Assembly: GCF_035594765.1 (NCBI RefSeq)
Contig: NC_085845.1
Span: forward strand, 188,806,897-188,870,896
Length of the DNA stretch: 64,000 bases
Reading direction: 5' to 3'
Origin: Anolis carolinensis
Lineage: Eukaryota
Shown: piece by piece, positions 10,576 to 37,439 of the stretch
Layout of the letters: each line of letters begins with the position of its first letter
Numbering within the stretch: position 1 is the first letter of the stretch
The notes under the pieces: model-generated
Database searches by the model: none
Told to the model about the DNA's origin: nothing
Seen by the model: only the letters and a program-made list of their open reading frames with translations
Program-made: the position numbers and the translations under genes

Positions 10576-11879
10576 CATAAGATGTTAGACTTGTTAAAGG
10601 CAAGCCTTCAGGTTACTCAGATACTTTCTTCATGCAGAGATGTTGAAATATAATGAACACAAAACCATATGCTGTTGGGCTCACAAACCTGCATAGATTT
10701 CCTTACACTGTTTTGGCCATCATACAACGACCATATTTTGTACAAAGTGACTGAAGTGTTCCTATAACTCTAAATACTAATGTTAGTCCCAACTAGAGAG
10801 AAGCCATTGAAATTACATTTCTTGCTGTGTACGATTATCGTTTCCTCCTTATGGCAACCTTACAAGATTTTAATAAGGCTGAGAGTGTGTCACTTGCCAA
10901 GGATCATCCGGTGGGTTTTCACAGCTGAGTCAGGATTTAAATCATGATCTCCAGAATCACAGTCCAGTGTTCAAGCCGCTATGCCATTGTAACAATTAAT
11001 GAGGCTTTTTTGTTAGGAAATTGGTCAATCTTACCCACATAAGCCTGTAAGGGGCACAATTGATTTTTTGGGATGAGAGATTGGCCTATTTTAATTCCCA
11101 GAGAAGTCTTTTTAAAGTTATTTTTTAAAGACATCTCCCCCCACCAGGCGTGAAGCCCAGTCCTCTGAAAATTTCCAATGCTAGATGTTTTTAAAGACAT
11201 GTTTAGCCAATTACCAGACAAAAAACATTGGGTGAGCAAAAGTAGAAGTCCACAAGTGGCATAATACCCATATATACTTGTCTAGTCATGTATTTCCCCA
11301 GGTAATTTGAGTAAGTGCAGCAGGCATGACAAATTAATATAAGCTAAAAGGAGGCAAAGGAAGAAGTGGAGGCCTGGGAAAACATCAAGCAGCAGCAAAT
11401 GATTTCTGCAAGGCCATTTTGTATTTGGGCAGAGTTTCCAAAAGCTAGAACAATGAAGATACCACACCAGCTGTGAATGCAAATTCACGTCTGATCAGCA
11501 CATCCTTGATGCTTGCTCTCTTTTCTCCTAACAAGTAGATAATGCTGGAATAAGCAATGACTCTCTTCCAAGCCTCTTTCATGAACTGGCAGAAGTGTGT
11601 TTGAACTTAATACTGTCAGTTATCCTAACGAAGAGCTCTTTAGTGCCATTTCATCATTGAATTTTGACATCCCAAATTAAAAACTAACACACGGCTGTAA
11701 TTCCTATAGTTAATGGTCTGGGAGTTGAATTCAGTGGGATTAATGTGTGCTTAGAGTGTGGACTGTGATTCTGGAGACTAGTGTTCAGATCTCTGCTCAG
11801 ATATGGAAACCATTTCAGCTTCAGAGGATGGTAAACTCACCCTCCTCTCAACAAATATGTCAAGAAAAAACCAGGAATA

Positions 11880-12172
11880 GGGTTGCTGTAAGTTTTCCAG
11901 GCTGTATCTCCATGTTCCAGGAGCATTCTCTTCTCACATTTCGCCCACATCTAAGGCAGGAATCCTCAGAAATTGTGAGGTCTGTTGGAAACTAGTCAAG
12001 TGGGGTTTACATATCTGTGGAATGTCCATGGTGGGAGAAAGAACTCCTGACTGTTTGAGGCATGTGTGAATGTTGCCATTGGTCAGCTTGATTAGCATTG
12101 AATAGTCTTGTATTTTCAAAGCCTGGCTGCTTCCTGCCTGAGGGAATCCTTTGTTGGGAGGTGTTAGCTGGC
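11880..12172 (-). mobile_element. Older Penelope 3' fragment with a decayed hammerhead
   Basis: Homologous to 30380-30478; GAAACGTC is mutated to GAAATGTG. Confidence 0.7.
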
Positions 12173-24075: not shown

Positions 24076-25124
24076 CCATTTTGGCAGATGCTTCATTAAA
24101 AAACACCAGAGGATGATCCAGGAGATAATTAATCCAAAACATGTGTTTTCAGGATACTTCACTCTATTACAACTCACTGAAAATCCTGTGATGAGTTTCT
24201 TCAGGATTGCTGTAAGTCAGAAACAACTTGCAGACACACAACAACAAATAAATAATTTAAATAAAATGAGAAGATGTGGGGAATGGAGTCAAATCCTATT
24301 TTCTCCCATTTGGAGGGGATATCACTTTTCTGTCGTTAACCCTTTTAGGACAGGCAGTATATCAACAGTGAAGTTAATATGCTGATACAATGTTAGGACA
24401 ATTCTACTTGTTGAGTTACACTTGCTGTGGCTTAAAGACACCAGTACCCTGCCAAAAGAAAATGTAGTATCCTGTTCTCATGACATGAAAATAGTATGTT
24501 CCAGGTCTCCATTTACACTACACAATTATAGCAGTAAAATCCCACTTTAACTGACTTGTCTGTATCCAATGGAATCCTAGGATTTGTAGTTTGGTGAGAC
24601 ATACAAACACTTTGGCAGAGTACTCTAAATTGTTGTTTTTGTGTGCCTTCAAGGTGTTTCTGATGAATGACGACCCTAAAGCAACCCCATCACAGGGTTT
24701 TCTGGCGCTGAGTGTGTGCTTTGCCTTGGATCACACAATGGACTTTCATGGCCAAGCAAAGATTTCAGCCCTGGTCTCTAGAGTTGTCTTCCAACACTCA
24801 AACTGGTATAAACTGAAGAATTCCATGGGATGCCACATAATCATAATGCAATAACTGTGTAATGTGAAAGGGTCCCTGGGAGATTCTGTCCCTCTCCCCT
24901 ACAAGTCACCCGACATTCAGAATCCCTTGCCATCTTAAAGTAAAGGTTCAGGAGTCCTGTTTGAGTCTTGTGAATCATGGTGTTTCAACATATTGCTATG
25001 ATAGCTTTGGGGTTAATGTGAACTAAGGATGGAAATCCACTGCTACCCATAAGGCTGAATTCAGAGATATTTTGGCCAGCTTCATTCAAGTGGAGCTGAA
25101 AGCAGAAGTTTGGGACTCAAATTA

Positions 25125-25912
25125 CCAATTTAAAGAGGCCCTAAAGAACTCGTAAAAGGCACCAAATAGGCAAAACAAGCCCTGGACAACCTGAAGGAGG
25201 CTCTTAAAAACTTGTAAAACACAACAAAAGGGCAAAACGGGCCCTGGACAACCCTAAAGAGGCCATAAAAACGTGTAAAAGGCACCAAATGGGTCCTGCA
25301 CAACTGGAAGGAGGCCCTAAACAGTTTGTAAAAGGCACCAAATGAGCAAAACAGGCCCTGAACAACTCTAAAGAGACCCTAAATAACTTGTAAAAGGCAC
25401 AAAAAAGGCAAAACAGGCCCCGGTGAACCCAAAAGAGGCCTAAACAACTTGTAAAAGGCACAATATGGGTAAAACAGGCCCTGGACAGCCATGAAGGGGC
25501 CCCAAACAACTTGTAAAAGGCGCCAAATGGGAACAGTGAGCCTTGGAACACCCTAAAGAGGCCCAAAACAAATTGTTAAAGGCACCAAATGGGAAAAGGG
25601 GCCCTAGAACACCCTAAAGAGGCCCGAAACAACTTGTAAAAGGCACCAAATGGGCAAAACGGTCACTGGGCCACGCAAAGGGAGCCCTAAACAACTTGCA
25701 AAGGAACACAAGCGGGGAAAAAAGGGTCCTGGGCCACCCTAAGGGAGCCCTAATCAACTTGCAAAGGAGCCCAATTGGACAAAACGGGCCCTGGACCACC
25801 CTCAGACAGCCCTAAACAACTTGCAAATGAACACAAGTGAGCAAAATGGGCCCTGGGCCACCCTAAAGGGGCCCTAGACAACTTGCAAAGGAGCCCAATT
25901 GGGCAAAACGGA
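25125..25912. repeat. Minisatellite, unit about 60-62 bp, about 13 copies
   Basis: Unit CCCTAAACAACTTGTAAAAGGCACCAAATGGGCAAAACAGGCCCTGGACAACCCTAAAGAGG is visible in successive lines. Confidence 0.9.
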
Positions 25913-27116
25913 ATGGTGAGAGCTGAAGTCCAAAACACCTGGAGGACCAATGCCTGAGAATCACCACTCTAAGGCAATGTTTCTTTAAAACCTAATACAA
26001 TAACAATTGGTAGTTGGTACTATGGATACCAGAGAGCACACACACACAAACAAACAACTAAACGAGTTTGAGGGTGAATCAAAACTGAACTCTCACTAGA
26101 ATTAAAAAACTATGGGTTATAAGCCTCGGACACCCAGAGTGCAACCAGGATCCATTTGGGTGTCAGCTGATGCTGGAAACATAATCAGAAAAACACTAGA
26201 TCTCCTCATTCACAATTTTCTATTGGTCTTGATTGAATGTCATTTCAATGTTTAGGGGGCCCTCTACTGTCAGCATTTGGAATTATACCTTCTCATTTAG
26301 AACAGCTTCTACAGATTGAATCCAGCAAAAAAGGCTGAAATATCTAATCTCTGTATAATGATTTGGATACATTTTTACCTACTGAAAAGCTTTTTCCTAG
26401 AAACTTCCACACACCTCTCCCGTAGAACATTTTTACTGTGAAAAGTGAACTTCTGTAGTCAGCCCTCCATATCCATAGATTTTGTATCAATGGATTCTCT
26501 ATCCACTGAGTCAGTGATCCATGGCTTGAAAATATTCCAGTCAATTAATGAACCAAGCAAATCTTGACTTTGCCATTTTATTTAAGGGATACCATTTTAT
26601 TATGTCAATGTATATCACAGAACTTGAGTATCCACTGATTTAGATATCCATAGATATCCTGGAATCAAACCACAATGGACACCAAGGGCTCATTGTATAA
26701 AGGCAAGTATAAGCAAGGACACCTATGAAAATAATACAGAAAATATAGTAATTTCTGATTTGGTTGGCAGAAATTATTAGCGAGGAAAGCAGAAACACCA
26801 CATCAAACAGAAAGGCTGTTACAGGGTGTAAAAAAGTCAGAAAATAGTTGGTTATCTAATATTTTTGATGTCTCTGCGTTCTCACTCCCAGGGAACAATA
26901 TTCAATATTCAAGAAATGTTCTAATTGAGTTCCATAATTTGGCTGACTTGGCTAATGTGAAAGTTTGTGTGTATGTTTTGGGGCGATGGTGTTGGGCCAG
27001 ATCTCAGATATTAGACCTGCTGTATATCACCCAGAAAATACATGGAATGTGGGAGCATACTGAATTAGCTTGGAAATATTAGTTTTCAAAAACAAACAGT
27101 CCAAGTTCTTCTAGAT

Positions 27117-27232
27117 CAGACATGGGAAACTTAGTCCCTCCAGGTGTTTTGGACTCCAAATCCCACTGGCTGTTAGGAATTGTGGGTGTTGGCGTCCAAA
27201 ACACCTGGAGGGCTGAAGTTTGCCCATGACTG
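27117..27232. mobile_element. Palindromic hAT MITE, same family
   Basis: 8-bp TSD TTCTAGAT. Confidence 0.85.
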
Positions 27233-30067
27233 TTCTAGATGAAGACAGGAGTAACCGTTTTTTGGAGGGAACACAAAGTATTTTCTAAAAGTTCAGCATA
27301 CAGTGACATCTTACAACATTCAGTGCATGTGCCTATAAAGATTAGTTTAGTTCTCACAGTAAAAGTTACAACATCATCAAAGGAGAAAAACAAAGGACGA
27401 TGGTTCAGTCATCCGGTCTTTAGTTACAATGCTGGGTGATTTGATTTTGTCCTTGAGAAGTTATCTTTTATACATAAATGTGGGTGAGAACTGGGTGAAG
27501 CTGTTGACTTGCTAATATGGACCTCAGCATATTCCTTTCGTCTTATAGTTTATCAAAATTGAGGGGAGAGAGATACTTTGGTTCTAAAGCAAAATGGTCT
27601 TTTAAACTCTATATCCCATAGACACAAGTTAATCTCTTTTTTACCTCCTAAAGCTGAATTAATTGGGCAATATTTATGGTAGTTTTTAAACAGTGTTAGG
27701 GAGTCTACAGGGGTCAACCATATACCATGCAGCTGTGAATAAGTCTACATAGGGACCACCAAATGCAGCATTGCCCAGACATAAACCAAGGAACATGAAA
27801 GGCACTGCAGACTAATTCAATCAGAGAATAATAATAATAATAAAATAAAACTTTATTTATACCCCGCCACCATCTCCCCAACGGGGACTCAGGGCGGCTT
27901 ACATGGGGCCATGCCCAAAGCAATACAATATAAACAGCATATAAAAACAACACATCACAACACAATAAGCGATACAATAAATAATAATATCCAATTACAG
28001 TACAAGAGAAGTCAGCCATAGGAGAGCACTTGATGAACCAACCTGGACACAGCATATTATATGAGAACACAGAAATGCTGGACAACTTCGACAACACAGT
28101 GTTAGGGAAGTCTATTCTCCTGAGACCCTTTTATAATTTTTTTTCTGTGTCAGGAGTGATGTGAGAAACAGTTTCCTTTATAGTACAATTTATATTATTT
28201 GGCAGACAGTAAAACATCAGGGTCAGCCCTATAAGGTAATGGGTCACTGGCAGGAAATGGTGAACACACATGGAAGGGGCAAAACTACCTACTTACCTAC
28301 ACATTATCTATTACAAGTGTGTCCCTTGAGTTTATACAAGTATGGCTTTGAAGATGGATATTTTTTGAGGGTACATCTGCACTGAAGCATTAATGCGGCT
28401 TGATACCACGTTAATTGCCATGGCTTAGTGCTATGGAATCCTGTCAAACTACATTCATTCTATAGTGTCGTTGCACCCAAAGTCACCCTGTTTTATACAT
28501 AGCACACTTTATTTATATTTTATATAGTTTTTTCCTCAGTCTTTGAGACATGCAAAACCAAACTGCTCATGACGGAGTCTCTGGAACATATTCTCCAAAC
28601 ATTCTTGTCAACATTTAGAGAAGGCATGAGTATATGTTGTTAGTACTAAATTGTTTATTATGGATTTAAAATTAATTTACATTCTCTTCCTATGTTTATG
28701 TTGGTAGCAGAATACAGGGGGAAAAGCCTCTGTGCAAAAAAAAAATCCATCAAGAATGGCATCTCTTTCAGTTATTTGCCTGCTTGTAATTAGTAACAAA
28801 GAAAGAATTATTTTTTATATCTGCTGTCTCCTTTTTTAATGTCACAAACCCAGTGTGGGTAGATGAGGTCAGAATTTGTATAAAATATGGGGGGGGGGGG
28901 GGGCTCTGCACTGTAGAATTAGTGCCGTTTGGTACCACTTCAACTACCATGGTGCTGTAGCATAATGGGAATTGTTGCTGTGGCAATTAAAGTGGTGTCA
29001 AATTGTATTCGTTTTATAGTATCCTGTCTCACTTTTCTTTAGTTTCTAAATTTTGCAGATGTGTTCTCAACATTTCCAATATTCTGGACTCAGTTCTTGC
29101 ATTGATTGTTCCAAACAAACTTGAAGGCTGAGCCCCCTCCACTCCGTCAGACTTGTCCTGTCCACATACCAGATATGTTAACCAAAGGAATCATGCTATG
29201 GTTTTTCATCTACAAGTATGCAGCAATCCCAGGACAAAGAAGCACTGTTATGTCATTTTACCAGCAAAGCAAAGTCCATTCTTTTGGCATGCATAATAAT
29301 AAAGGACAAGAATGCATCTAATGTTCTTTACTCTGATAGCTGCAGGCTTAACAGATGGCATTTTTAAAGTTGACTCCCCATTCTGACAACCATGAAATGG
29401 ATAGTGAGCAATCCCTTCATAAGTTGGTGAAGAATGCATTGTGACACCACTTGAGCTGCCATGGCTCAATGCTATGGAATCACAGGAATTGTAATTTTAC
29501 AAGGTCTTCTCTATGTCAAAGAATGTTGGTGCTTCACCAAACCACAACTCCCAGGATTCCATAGCATTGAACCATGGCAGTTCCAGTGATTCCTCCAGAG
29601 GAACAGTGGACATGATCTTCATTGCACGACAGATCCAAGAAAAATGCCGGGAACAAAATCAACCTCTGTACATGACATTCATTGACCTTGCAAAGGCATT
29701 CGACACAGTGAATCGCAGTGCTCTCTGGACCATCCTCCAAAAAATCGGGTGCCCTGACAAATTTGTGAACGTCCTGTGACTCCTCCACGATGACATGATG
29801 ACAACAGTCTTGGACAGCAACGGCTCCCAAAGTGACCCATTTAAGGTGGAATCAGGTGTCAAGCAGGGATGTGTTATTGCCCCCACCTTATTTTCCATCT
29901 TCATTGCTATGATATTTCATCTTGTTGATGGGGAGCTTCCGAACTGTGTGGAAATCATCTATTCCACAGATGGTAAGCTATTTAACCTCAGCAGACTGAA
30001 AGCCAAAACCAAGGTCACAACAACATCTATTATAGAACTCCAATATGCCTATGATAATATAGTCTGT

Positions 30068-30478
30068 TGTCGAAGGCTTTCATGGCCGGGATCACAGGGT
30101 TGTTGTATGTCTTTCGAGCTGTGTGGCCATGTTCCAGAAGTATTCTCTCCTTTGCGTTCCAGGCGGTTGTAAATACGATGAGCCTGTGGTGTTTTGAAGG
30201 TCCTTTTGGCTGCAAGAAATTGTGGGATGGTATCTGTGTCTCTGCAGCGTAGAAGGAAGGTCAGGGAGCACAGCAGATGTGCTTTCCTGGTCCTTAGTTT
30301 TTCCAATCTCCGTGTGTCTTGGAACAATTTCTCCCCGTAGAGATGTTCAATGTGTTGTCGAAGGCTTTCATGGCCGGGATCACAGTGTTGTTGTATGTCT
30401 TTCGGGCTGTGTGGCCATGTTCCAGAAGTATTCTCTCCTGACGTTTCGCCCACATCTATGGCAGGCATCCTCAGAGGT
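30068..30478 (-). mobile_element. Penelope-like element: partial tandem pseudo-LTR with ORF N-terminus, inserted in the RTE
   Basis: About 85-bp direct repeat (30068-30151 and 30356-30439); frame ...DPGHESLRQHIEHLYGE...LTFLLRCRD...IPQFL; the RTE frame resumes at 30479 (EEDLQATLNTF). Confidence 0.8.
30435..30478 (-). ncRNA. Minimal type I hammerhead ribozyme motif of the Penelope pseudo-LTR
   Basis: Minus strand reads A-CCU-CUGAGGA-U-GCCUGC-cauagau-GUGGGC-GAAA-C-GUC^AGG: core CUGANGA and GAAA, 6-bp stem II, CCU/AGG stem I, palindromic ACGU stem III, GUC cleavage triplet. Confidence 0.75.
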
Positions 30479-33400
30479 AGAAGAAGACCTACAAGCCACT
30501 CTAAACACCTTTGCAAAAGTATACGAGAAGCCAAAAACCAAAGTGCTCTTTCAACAGTCATTAGCCAATCTATCTGCAATGCCAGAAATACAGCTTATTG
30601 GTGTAACATTAGAAAATGTCGACCATTTCCGCTACCTTGGCAACCACCTCTCCACAAAAGTCAACATTGACACTGAAATACAACACTACCTGAGCTCTGC
30701 AAGTGAAGCATTTTTCTAAACAAATCAGAGTGTTTGAGAATTGGGACATCCGTAGAGATACCAAGGTGCTTGTTTATAAAGCCATTGTCCTCCCAACCCT
30801 GCTCTACTCCTGCGAAACGTGGACTGTCTACAGAAGCCACACTCAACTCCTGGAACGATTCCATCAGTGTTGCTCTGAAAAATCCTGCAAATCTCTTAAG
30901 AAGATAGGCAGACAAATGCCAGCATGCTTGAAGAAGCAAAAACCACCAGCATTGAAGCGATGCTCCTACGCCATCAGTTCTGCTGGACTGGCCACGTTGT
31001 CCGAATGCCCGATCACTGTCTCCCAAAGCAGCTACTCTACTCCGAACTCAATAACGGGAAACGGAATATTGGTGGGCAGGAAAAGAGATTCAAAGATGAG
31101 CTTAAAGCCAACCTTAAAAACTGTAGCATAGATACAGAGAACTGGGAAGACCTGGCCCTCGAGTGCTCTAGCTGGAAGTCAGCTGTGACCAGCAGTGCTG
31201 TGGAATTTGAAAAGGCACAAATGGAGGGTGAAAGGGGGAAACGTCCCAAGAGGAAGGCACGTCAAGCCAACCCTAACTGGGACTGCCTTCCACCTCGAAA
31301 CCGATGTCCTCACTGTGGAAGAACATGCGGGTCAAAAATAGGGCTCCATAGTCACCTACATATCCACTGCCAAGACACTGCACTAGGAAGGCCATCATAC
31401 TCAGACAACAAGTGATAGCCTAAGAAGAAGTTCCGGTGGTATCAAACTGCATGAATTCTACATTGTATATCCACCCTAAGTTTAGGGAGGAGGTTCTGTG
31501 CTTTATGAGTGCAATGTTTCTTCCCTTCCAGCCATTGCCTGCTTTTGCTGGATGCTTCTGGATAGTTTGGAGGAAATGAGAATAAGGCCACCTTGCCATC
31601 AGAATCAATAAACTTTGGCTACTCTGCAGTCAGTCAGCAAGTTTAATTTTTATCAGCCACAACATGGTTAATGAAAACAGGGTCTGAACTCTCTTTTCAG
31701 CCCCATTAGAGTAGACCAATTGAATCTGTTAGGTTTACCTATGTGTTGACTCTCAATTCCACAAATTGACTCAGATCTTTTTCAGTTACACAACCCTAAC
31801 ACTCTGATATCACTTTAACTACCATTTTTTGTCCTATGAACTATTTTCTAAGGTGTTTCATATTAATTACTGGTAGACTGAAAGGTGGTATATAAGCTAA
31901 TAATGCAATCAAGAAAAGCTGAGAGCCCATCACTCTTTTTTAAAATTAGGAATATATTATCATTATAACATTAATATACAAATATGTATTTGATTAACTG
32001 TATGAGGGATATATTACTTCTTATGGCCACACTTTATATTTGATTATAAAATTGTTCTTCAGTTCCAAGTAAGTTTTTATCTAATATGATGTCCAAATGG
32101 TCTAGCAAAACAAAAGTGGGTGTGTGGAGCTGCTGTTTTGTAGATTTAAGATATTTTTTAAATCTGTTGTTTTCACCTTTTCATGAGGTAAATTGGGATA
32201 TAGAGATTTAACATTCAAAGTGCATGCAATATCCTTTTTGCCAATATTCAAATCTATCACCTGACGAATGAAATTGGGTGGTTCTCTAATGAAAGATCAG
32301 GCTTAGATACAAAAAAATTATAGGAATTAATGCACAAACCTAGTGGTTCAAGCAATGACTGAGAGTACATCTACACTGTTAAATTAATGCAGTTTGACAC
32401 CACTTCAGCTGCCATGACTCAGTGCTATGAAATGCTGAGGGTTGTAGTTTTACAAGTTCTTTAACCTTCCCTGATTAATAGTTCTGGTGTCTCACCGGAC
32501 TATAAATCCCACATTGTAACATAGCATTGCACTATGGCAGTTAAAGTGGTGTCAAACTGCATTAGTTCAACAGTGTAGATGCACCCCTAGAAACTAATAC
32601 CATGTGTCTTCCTGGCAGCGGCCTCTATTACTAATTTTAGGCAACTTAAACAAGGGATTAATCAAAGGTTTAGCTACTGTATCCTGTATATGTCAGAATG
32701 CTTGAGCTTTGTATACTCCAACCTTAAGTAGAGATAAAATGTGTGCAGGATGATTTTTTATCTTCTTATAGAAAGTCTTATTGCATTATCTACTCCTCAG
32801 CTCTACATGTACGTATATTGTAACTCTGTGGAATAAAACTGGCTTTTTTGTTGTTGTTGCTTTTATTTTGAATTCTCTGGCAAGGTGCTCTAGTGCCTCA
32901 TTCAGTTACAAATCTCAGGATTTTACATGATGCAGCCAAGACAGTTCAAATTGTTCTAAAGTTATATAACTGCATAGTGTGACGGAGACTTCAGAGTGTC
33001 TATTCTAATTGGGATTCAGAATATTCAAGATAATGTGTCCTGTCTCATCTTGCATTTTAATTTAATCCTGTTAGTTTCTTTCTCTTACACGCCCATAACT
33101 CTGTACAAAGAGACCAACGTCTTCTTTTGTTGCCTCTTTCTGTTGAGACTTGCAAGTCAACCAAGAATCTCAAGCAGTAGAAAATAAATAATCAAAGGCC
33201 CAGATGAAAAAGTTGCATTAGTACCATTTCTATGTGTCTCTTAAAGTAGCCTGTGTGCTCAAATTTGAGACAAAGAGAACTTTAGGTGACACACTGAGTA
33301 AAGCTGCCTTAGGAACAGAGAAAGGAAACCTTATAAATCACTTCTAGTTTCTAGTCATGGGAAGTCTAGTTTCTTAGTCATGGAAAGTCATAGTACCTTG

Positions 33401-33689
33401 TGTGATAAGAGGAAAGATGTGCTAATGATGGAGCAAATAACTAAACATTGGCGAGGTGATAATTGTTTTTATTTTGTCTTCTTAAAAAAGTACCTTTCCT
33501 CTAAGTCTTCTTTAGGAAAAGTAAGAGAAACCACAAAGCTGGTAACTGATGTTGAGTATAATCATTTTCACCATGTTCTGTTAAGAAAACCCTTTTATAG
33601 GGTCGCTATAGGTTAGAAACAACAACATGCTACACAACAGCAACAAATATTTATTAGAATGAAGAAGATTCTTCTGCTGCTCAAGACAT

Positions 33690-34157
33690 TTATTTATATA
33701 TTTACAGTATTTATATCCAGCCCTTCTCACCCCAAAGGGGACTCAGGCGGATCACAATGTACATATACATGGCAAACATTCAATGCCATACGACATAACA
33801 TGTTCTAGCTTCCAGACTTCATGAGGGTGTGCTCGATTCCGGCCAAAGGAGGAGCTGCTGCTTCATCATCCACTGTGACACTGAGTCCTTGATAGATTAC
33901 TTCCTCATTCCTCTCCACACGCTGCTGGATGATTTTTTATGGTGTTGTAAATTAGTTAAATTAGCCTCCCCACATAAGCGGTGCCTAAATTTCCTACTTG
34001 ATAGATGCAACTGTCTTTCAGGTTGCTTAGGTCAACAACAAACTGAGCTATTTTTAATGGTCGGGCACTCAATCCGATGCAGGCTAGCTTCGAACTCATG
34101 ACCTCTCGGTCAGTAGTGATTTATTGCAGCTGGTTACTAACCAGCTGCGCTACAGCT
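33690..34157 (-). mobile_element. tRNA-derived SINE with an L2-type 3' tail
   Basis: Minus strand starts GCTGTAGCGCAGCTGG (A box)...GAGTTCGAAGC (B box) and ends in the CCGCCTGAGTCCCC...GGATATAAATA tail shared with L2 ends. Confidence 0.6.
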
Positions 34158-35157: not shown

Positions 35158-37439
35158 CTAGAGAGACAAAGTGTTGATCAGAAGCAAGAAACAAACTGTA
35201 TTTATGTCTGTTTTGTAAGGAGTGGATAAAACGTGAACAATGAGTTGTTGTGGGGTAGAGAGATTTTGTGCCTTGAGACTCTCTCTGGACCATGCAGAGT
35301 GCCAAAAATAATTCCTCAAAAAAGAAAGAAATCCAAAAGTGACCATCTTTCTAATGCTAGTTGTTTTAGTTGTTTCTAAACAAAGGTCAAAACTTTCTAT
35401 AATTAGGCAAACATTTCCATCTCACATTGTTGAAGCACTCCTGATATGGCAGGATATATACCATTTCCTTCAAGTATGGAAGTGGGAGGTGGAGAGTCAG
35501 TAGAAAGAGTAAAGATTTCCCCCTGACGTTAAGTCTAGTTGTGTCCAACTCTGGAGGTTGTTGCTCATTTTCATTTCTAAGCCGAAGAGCCAGCGTTGTC
35601 CATAGACACCTCCAAGGTCATGTGGCCAGCATGACTGCATGGAGCAACATTACTTTTCCGCTGAAGTGGTACCTATTGATCTACTCACATTTGCATGTTT
35701 TTGAACTTTTAGGTTGGCAGAAGCTGGGGCTAACAGTGGGAGCTCACCCTGCTCCATGGATTCGAACTGCTGACCTTTCAGTCAGCAAGTTCAGCAGCTC
35801 AGCGGTTTAACCCACTGCATCACTGGGAGCTCCAGAGAGTCAGTAAAACTGCAAAATATACATACCCAAATATTTCTATATACAGTAGAGTCTCACTTAT
35901 CCAACATAAACGGGCCGGCAGAACGTTGGATAAGCGAATATGTTGGATAATAAGGAGAAATTAAGAAAAAGCCTATTAAACATCAAAATAGGTTATGTTT
36001 TTACAAATTAAGCACCAAAACATGTTTAACAAAAAAAATTGACAGAAAAAGTAGTTCAATACTCAGTAATGCTATGTAGTAATTACTGTATTTACGAATT
36101 TAGCACCAAAATATCACGATGTATTGAAAACATTGACTACAAAAATGCGTTGGATAATCCAGAACGTTGGATAAGTGAGACTCTACTGTAGTTGGGTTTT
36201 TAGAGTAAGATGAAGCTTTCTCCATCCACTCAGGGATTTTAATGAGTGGTTCTATATTAATCTCAATGATACACATATTTCTGGTGGACTTTTAGATGTT
36301 TTTTCAAGTACTGCTCCTTACCCTTCAACTGTACACGCTCTCCAGTTCCTGTTAAAACCAAGGATGATTTTCATTTCTTGCTCAGACAACTTAAAGTCAA
36401 ACACCTGTCAAAAAGGATAAAGAGTTTTGCCAAAAAGGTGCCCAAAGAGTCACAAGAGTCGCAAAGGTACAATTTTTTTACAGATATCCCCACCCCCTTC
36501 AAACAAAGGTCAGTGTAGCATTCATAGGAGTTATCTCCCTAACATTTAGTGAAGTAGGTCAAATGTAAAGTAATGAATGGCTCAAGTGCACGTTTGAAGG
36601 TATTGAAAATGAAAGAAGGGAAAAGATTACCTCTGAGGATGCCTGCCATAGATATGGGTGAAACGTCAGGAGAGAATATTTCTAGAACATGGCCATACAG
36701 ACCGGAAAACACACAACAACTCCGGGAAAGATATATGTGAAAATTAAAAAATCAGAAACTAGTAATCCTTTTATGAGATTCATTGAAGTGTTATAGTAGA
36801 GGTGGGAGGTCTGCAGGTTTGAATAACTTTCTACTTGGTGAGAATGGAGGGAAATCCCATTAGCCACATCCAGCAAGCTGACCATAGAAAGCATCTCATT
36901 TTCCACTGAACTTGTAGCTACAAGACAATTAGGGCAGAGAAACACCATGGCCAATTCACCAAGCCTCATTTTTAAAAAGAATGTATGTTCCTTCTTGTCT
37001 CCACTAATTTTCGTATCATCAAGTCTAATGAAGTTCTGGAGAATTTGGACATTTGTGTCACTTATGTGCTCCTTTTGGCACACATTACCTTGAAAAGAAC
37101 AACACTAAAACACAACCAACTCTATTTGACAACACTATTGTGAAAGGATGAGAAGGACATATTGACATGTCTCTAGTAAAGCAGCAATTCAGGGAGTTTC
37201 CACCAAATTCACAGCACATTACACTAACATTATTTGAACTATTTACCTGGAATGCAAAATTGTTCTTGATATGATCCTGACAAATGACGCATAGCAAAAC
37301 CTGGCAGATGACCTTTCTTTTGCAAACCATTGTGTTTATTGCATTTGTGTTTTTAAGGCACTGAATGTTTGCCTTCATGTTTGTGATCGCTGGAATTCGT
37401 ACTAAGTCCCCTCGGGGAGATAGGGCAGAATATAAATAA

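Follow-up and report, generated by a model that had tools for sequence, protein, structure and literature searches.

A tandem join at the hammerhead cleavage site of a Penelope-like element in the green anole and a modest genome-wide excess of junctions at the same bond

The closest described system is PAc/Poseidon_Ac, the Penelope-like element (PLE) of the green anole, whose hammerhead ribozyme self-cleaves in vitro in a protein-assisted manner and loses cleavage upon introduction of the core mutation G8C or C3G (Frangieh et al. 2024, PMC11167929). In the portions of that paper used here, the cut is mapped 26 nt after the ATG, reverse transcriptase (RT) initiation is mapped to nucleotides 111 to 118 of the open reading frame (ORF), priming is described on both target strands, and a GIY-YIG endonuclease domain is documented; RNA-seq reads ending at the cut were not found, insertion products were unchanged with ribozyme mutants, and unprocessed RNA was the dominant template in vitro. 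A tail on one end of PLE insertions is already known from other work, as far as the consulted sections go (Craig et al. 2021, PMC8557442; Arkhipova et al. 2013, PMC3846280). Outside the PLEs, the 5' junctions of R2 are reported to record the cut of its HDV-like ribozyme, with nontemplated bases (Eickbush et al. 2013, PMC3774820, in the part considered). The relevant passages of Cervera and de la Pena (2014, PMC4209133), PMC8557442, and PMC11167929 all treat in vivo cutting by the minimal hammerheads of animal Penelope elements as an open question, and we found in the open-access literature neither PLE junctions mapped to the hammerhead cut nor in vivo evidence of cutting. Neither the element and its ribozyme nor the partial tandems, inverted copies, and tail are new. 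What we describe is a precisely placed join in this known element, and following it up across the genome revealed a modest signature, open to testing, of hammerhead cutting in vivo as a side route of Penelope transposition.

The window, by which we mean the whole analyzed stretch of 64,000 nucleotides, carries a 414-bp PAc/Poseidon insertion on its minus strand, at positions 30065 to 30478. We number the element from the first base 3' of the hammerhead cut (+1, window position 30439, minus strand), with the C of GUC as -1 (30440). The insertion then consists of the segment from -39 to +288, joined without microhomology to the segment from +1 to +87. Its features and those of its surroundings are as follows.

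30437..30477, minus strand: minimal type I hammerhead, core fully parsed, with features as in the consulted part of PMC4209133
30439..30440, minus strand: scissile position of the upstream hammerhead, left uncut and read through in the upstream piece; the C of GUC is 30440 and the next A is 30439
30466..30468, minus strand: ATG of the PAc ORF, inside the ribozyme; the frame runs on to the RT domain in the intact relative L115
30152..30478, minus strand: upstream piece (-39 to +288), with the pseudo-LTR (pLTR) end, the intact hammerhead, and the first 317 nt of the PAc ORF
30065..30151, minus strand: downstream piece (+1 to +87), ending at ORF nucleotide 116, within the published RT start zone (ORF nucleotides 111 to 118)
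30151..30152, minus strand: join of +288 to +1, blunt, with no microhomology and no added bases
30065..30067, plus strand: three bases common to the element end and the target, as judged by setting the left flank against a consensus built from the loose ends of related repeat copies at 30479
29780..30064, plus strand (opposite to the element): left flank, a decayed RT-coding repeat that is the insertion target and resumes at 30479; RVT_1 match with an E value of 3.1e-06, below the curated cutoff

A preliminary description of this DNA had proposed that the tandem junction falls exactly on the hammerhead cut, and our data confirm this, as the second piece opens, at 30151, on the very base that follows the cut in the first copy. 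The cut itself had been predicted between 30440 and 30439; this placement also holds, lying 26 nt after the ATG as published for PAc, and the site has been mapped experimentally for the family (PMC11167929, in the part consulted). The extent had been given as 30068 to 30478, which located the element correctly, but its end can be drawn at 30065 rather than 30068, since positions 30065 to 30067 match the target as well.

The hammerhead comprises a 3-bp stem I, a CUGAnGA box, an extra U, helix II, GAAA, a self-complementary stem III remnant, and the triplet GUC. The features by which minimal hammerheads are recognized, all present in the window sequence, are the CUGAnGA and GAAA boxes, an extra base after position 9, a G10.1-C11.1 pair, a palindromic stem III remnant, and an NUH triplet. 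An Rfam scan of positions 26000 to 34000 matched no hammerhead model and returned only weak hairpin matches, and free-energy folds give helix II and not the catalytic fold; we did not count these folds as evidence. Compared by eye with the sequence in the consulted part of PMC11167929, the hammerhead is the assayed template except for one subfamily base at +11, and the tandem unit of L115 has the sequence of the printed PAc/Poseidon template. The upstream piece matches this unit at 324 of 327 bases, and L115, 99% identical over these common 327 nt, encodes an RT domain (RVT_1, E value of 9.7e-14) and a motif-like GVY...YIG, with no Pfam GIY-YIG match at an E value of 0.01. In L115 and L103, the tandem units that form the pLTRs have a period of 2,664 to 2,666 nt, with identity at 369 of 369 positions.

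The 87-nt downstream piece is 97.7% identical to the first copy, from which it differs at +35 and +54. We considered two different templates for the two pieces and discarded this idea for want of support: the variants are rare among the copies examined (2 of 154 and 3 of 154) and fit decay after insertion. At the join, the ORF goes on past +288 with C in 92 of the 93 genomic matches listed, found with a pattern that misses matches with A at its last place, and the join of +288 to +1 was seen among these matches at the window locus only (1 of 93). The element base before +1 is C, where the window has A. Since the base after +288 and the base before +1 are both C and the window base is A, the join lacks microhomology on either side. 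No listed contig bridges the join with 31 letters on each side; repeats of this kind interrupt contigs, so that this has no bearing on the join.

The order of the two pieces is that of a single pLTR-ORF-pLTR transcript from which 2,378 nt are missing (the tandem unit is 2,666 nt). This colinearity is what one would expect if a pLTR-ORF-pLTR copy had lost 2,378 nt through a common kind of internal deletion or template switch whose break fell on +1 by chance, and a near-register match to GAGAGA at element +295 to +300 points the same way. We regard such a coincidence as a serious possibility, though on balance a doubtful one, and return to it with the genome-wide counts. Nothing that we found explains the choice of +288 as acceptor. 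The ORF just past the join (element +286 to +297; window 30152, minus strand) nearly repeats the 5' strand of hammerhead stem I, which places the acceptor site immediately ahead of a CCU that can pair with the cut end. At L176 and L454, +1 is joined to the real stem I strand (at -39 and -36, respectively), excising the ribozyme core; these cases are few.

The target repeat of the left flank is presumably an RTE-like LINE. Contigs of related copies of this repeat join across the insertion site, and the target consensus at 30479 derives from 25 records of such copies (agreement of 0.75); an intact copy was not found among the loci examined. Judged from these paralogues rather than from an empty allele, the target appears to have lost about 8 bp, apparently with no target-site duplication. 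Elsewhere in the window are two older short copies of the PAc family, at 36629 to 36720 (plus strand, 90% identity) and 11879 to 11970 (minus strand, 83%), both of which read through the cut; an array of a repeat of about 62 nt at 25111 to 25945; and short inverted-repeat elements, MITE-like by appearance, at 27124 to 27224, 29448 to 29588, and 32365 to 32584. The latter two have sequence in common with each other and with 28366 to 28443, and weak miRNA-family matches in the inverted-repeat elements fall below their thresholds.

To judge a single join, the behavior of the whole family has to be considered. The exact 21-mer starting at +1 occurs 47,599 times in the genome, and about 99% of copies read through the cut site. 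We estimate that about 360 copies (0.76%) start at +1, compared with 240 at +2, 268 at -1, and 226 at +3 (0.47 to 0.56% for each neighboring base), a ratio of +1 over its three neighbors of 1.48 (1.13 to 1.89), or 1.52 (95% range, 1.04 to 2.14) without chance one-base extension. The raw counts of copies preceded by two nonconsensus bases were 296, 214, 128, and 248 at +1, +2, -1, and +3, respectively; the first 66, 51, 30, and 51 rows were classified, giving 45, 32, 22, and 26 distinct true junctions, and the estimates were corrected for the filters under an assumed base composition of 30/30/20/20. By these numbers, 34% (4 to 53%) of all +1 joins lie above background. A sharp genome-wide peak at the cut had been named as the sign that would support the model; there is an enrichment, with a ratio of 1.5, but the peak is not dominant, and approximately 99% of copies read through. 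The background itself, 226 to 268 joins per neighboring position among 47,599 copies (about 0.5% per base), is enough to lend weight to a chance break at the window locus.

A junction trap over -10 to +8 points in the same direction as the counts. Among the matches listed (the first 100 of 810), 16 of 99 distinct events start at +1, and the other 18 classes hold 1 to 10 events each, with a mean of 4.6 (Poisson P of 2.7e-5, or 5e-4 after multiplication by 19). The trap covers one subfamily, and the 99 events result from merging two identical pairs, entering two events from another locus, and leaving one out; relative to the whole-genome counts, it overstates the +1 peak. None of 30 unselected copies (L001 to L030) starts at +1, and 15 of them start between -59 and -28, just downstream of sequences that we take to be TATA-like (a run near -80) and initiator-like (a motif near -50). 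The main, uncut template likely starts at this cluster, and the window copy, starting at -39, falls within it. We also tried non-C at -1 as a quick count of junctions (428 of 15,667) and abandoned it, as it mostly reports substitutions in read-through copies. Small insertions at the cut, considered as rejoining scars, occur in single rows at +1, yet one-base duplications are found at -1 and +2 too. The loci L038 and L051 (G000:C1:25.85 Mb and 89.71 Mb) carry the same +1 join to the same nonelement flank at two distant places, so that some junctions must be duplicated or carried by another element; these two were merged before counting.

When the joins are divided by partner, the excess lies with microhomology-free joins of element to element, most of all head-to-head pairs. 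Joins to plain genomic flank show none, with 88 at +1 compared with 97, 73, and 61 at the neighbors (ratio of 1.1; 0.6 to 2.1). Microhomology-free joins of element to element, in contrast, number 232 at +1 compared with 75, 134, and 96 (ratio of 2.4; 1.4 to 4.2), so that 58% (27 to 76%) of those at +1 lie above background. The reference slice ran from -400 to +1803, and partners from the other 463 nt of the unit would score as genomic. Element-element joins lack microhomology in 29 of 34 cases at +1 and in 32 of 54 at neighboring positions (Fisher P of 0.017); the more frequent use of microhomology by neighboring joins (22 of 54) speaks against a chance origin of the window join, which has none. 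Some +1 joins nevertheless owe their position to 3 nt that match stem I in antisense. As in R2, blunt or nontemplated joins are in excess exactly at the cut; the microhomology-free, head-to-head, and go-back classes were defined after the data had been seen. The cut does not, however, hold most full-length 5' junctions of PAc; 0.76% of copies start at +1.

Head-to-head loci were collected with a trap that requires both arms to start near the cut, and we examined the 50 of 83 loci that were listed. Both arms start at +1 in 8 of the 50 (exact) or 10 (one substitution allowed), with untemplated spacers of 0 to 2 nt, mostly A or T, and 29 of the 56 arms in microhomology-free head-to-head joins start at +1; each such +1/+1 locus contributes two entries to the +1 set. 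In eleven loci the arms meet at the self-complementary ACGT (-5 to -2), a kind of join that needs no cleavage. Perfect zero-spacer palindromes number seven at ACGT, four at +1, and none at six other centers that are not self-complementary, among them +4, which has the same T|A as +1. The most permissive symmetric scoring places 12 of 31 at +1 and 4 to 6 at four other centers (P of 7e-4).

The other ends of these arms lie at two internal RT starts, clustering at about +55 and at +87 to +92, and the window insertion ends at +87. Of 40 scorable pairs, 36 combine an arm ending near +55 with one ending near +89, where 50% would be expected if the starts were independent; this corresponds to the one-ended tail already described for PLEs. 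The pairs (loci L181 to L195 and L316 to L350) were grouped by hand, and ten with an arm end below +40 were left out. This near-strict pairing suggests one start per target strand, with both cDNAs made in one complex, which would explain why both arms stop at +1.

Direct go-back tandems, the class of the window locus, show a weak excess only. The +1 position accounts for 4 of 25 loci (from 30 rows, with one nonelement row dropped and rows of one locus merged), and 7 or 8 are microhomology joins at -5/-6. We therefore set go-back traps aside as a test, having too few loci and a dominance of microhomology, and the lack of a strong +1 peak among them is compatible with chance at the window. The per-position samples argue the other way: direct go-back joins occur at +1 in 2 loci in 66 rows and at +2, -1, and +3 in none of 132 rows. 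Six loci besides the window have a direct go-back join at +1 (L353, L373, L448, L425, L440, and L444). Two of these, L353 (G000:C1:184471342-184472496) and L373 (G000:C1:340703939-340705084), are tandem arrays with units of 66 nt and 123 nt, respectively, each unit starting at +1, and repeat the +1 join two or three times running, a pattern expected from successive jumps or from rolling around a small circle.

These arrays bear on the idea that joining takes place at the RNA level, where the 5'-hydroxyl cut end would be ligated to another RNA end, forming a linear chimera or a circle that is then copied. Circular intermediates have been proposed for PLE hammerheads (PMC4209133, in the part consulted), and the runs of +1 joins in L353 and L373 are compatible with, though not diagnostic of, such rolling, as successive jumps or a later duplication of the DNA may also give repeated units. 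Many +1 joins, on the other hand, contain untemplated bases, which fit polymerase runoff. At the window locus, the units neither run from cut to cut nor repeat a closed circle, as those of a retrozyme-like circular RNA intermediate would: the upstream piece includes -39 to -1, with an intact, uncut hammerhead absent from a +1 to +288 circle, and ends at +288, which excludes a simple circle of that extent. Altogether, we consider RNA ligation very improbable.

A real excess at +1 could also arise if RT halted at the folded hammerhead or at a bound protein, with the RNA intact. Stalling would likewise put cDNA ends at one place with untemplated bases, and it accords with uncut RNA being the dominant template in vitro and with the lack of cut ends in RNA-seq (PMC11167929, in the sections used). 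It would, however, be expected at the 3' foot of a helix, that is, at +4 for stem I or at about -8 for the stronger helix II, and these positions hold 3 and 1 of the 99 trap events, whereas the peak sits on the sole bond that the ribozyme cuts. We therefore think stalling unlikely, though less so than ligation.

The family-level excess at +1 probably reflects ribozyme cleavage, and given that such joins are modestly over-represented genome-wide, the ribozyme is likely to cut on occasion in the living animal. A small fraction of templates would have a physical 5' end at +1; RT would run off this end, often adding one or two bases, and the runoff end would then join the other cDNA head to head or resume on element RNA, as at the window locus. 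At the window, the downstream piece would be copied first. RT may have primed at its usual internal start at +87, within the published start zone and, to judge from the sequence, aided by 3 nt of target homology. If the template had already been cut at the hammerhead, as others have shown in vitro and as the genome-wide excess suggests for the animal, copying would end at +1. RT or host repair would resume at +288 of an upstream element stretch, donated most simply by the 5' portion of the same transcript with its two hammerheads, or else by a second RNA, both fitting equally. Copying would then pass the uncut upstream hammerhead and end at -39, the observed end point, where many ordinary copies end.

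For the window join itself, the case for RT running off a ribozyme-cut RNA and rejoining is evenly balanced; the join does not clearly exceed chance as a single event, which we would call about an even bet, and the excess appears at the level of the family. An earlier proposal had RT run off a self-cleaved RNA and jump to a second, uncleaved RNA. The excess of blunt and head-to-head joins at +1 favors the runoff, but a second RNA is not required, since the pieces are colinear with a single pLTR-ORF-pLTR transcript lacking 2,378 nt. The further suggestion of a genomic record of in vivo cleavage draws on the same excess at +1, though only 27 to 76% of microhomology-free +1 joins lie above background. 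The cut-RNA route is minor, accounting for roughly 0.2 to 0.3% of copies above background, and the main template is uncut RNA. We see equal grounds for and against the broader reading that the genome holds a fossil record of cleavage by Penelope minimal hammerheads, in which a minority of complexes would contain cut RNA, both target strands would prime, one per internal start, and the cDNAs would run off at the cut to be joined head to head or to jump back.

If junctions are in excess at precisely the bond that is cut, as counted in tens of thousands of insertions, the genome itself would supply the evidence. By its effect size, cleavage would be a side route that gives truncated, fold-back, or internally deleted copies and not the normal way of making templates, and such a side route, with the cut inside the ORF, points to a limiting or regulatory role rather than to obligatory processing. 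If the fossil-record reading is true, counting junctions could serve generally to assay PLE ribozymes for activity in vivo. As a working in vitro system exists for PAc, the claim is directly testable.

With respect to the described systems, each compared through the parts of the papers used here, the window element has the same ATG, cut 26 nt downstream, and internal RT starts as PAc/Poseidon_Ac, and its sequence is equal except for the subfamily base and private changes (PMC11167929). That study detected no sign of cleavage in vivo and found it dispensable in vitro, whereas genomic junctions are modestly enriched at the cut here, mostly as blunt and head-to-head joins. As in the minimal hammerheads of metazoan PLE pLTRs, the window ribozyme has a short stem I, a long helix II, an extra base after position 9, and a self-complementary stem III remnant; the same authors call in vivo evidence absent and propose circles for the tandems, but the window join is not the product of a full-unit circle (PMC4209133). 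Complex PLE insertions likewise include partial tandems, head-to-head (inverted 5'-truncated) copies, palindromes at inverted junctions, and a tail at one end only, although their junctions were not mapped to the ribozyme cut in the sections considered (PMC8557442 and PMC3846280). The junction palindromes have been ascribed to self-priming (PMC3846280), whereas our +1/+1 class has no self-complementary sequence to prime on. The nearest parallel in principle is R2, where, as in the minority class of PAc, the junction position records cleavage, with nontemplated bases (PMC3774820). R2 is nevertheless another class of element with another ribozyme, whose cleavage defines full-length copies, whereas PAc carries its cut inside the ORF and reads through it in about 99% of copies.
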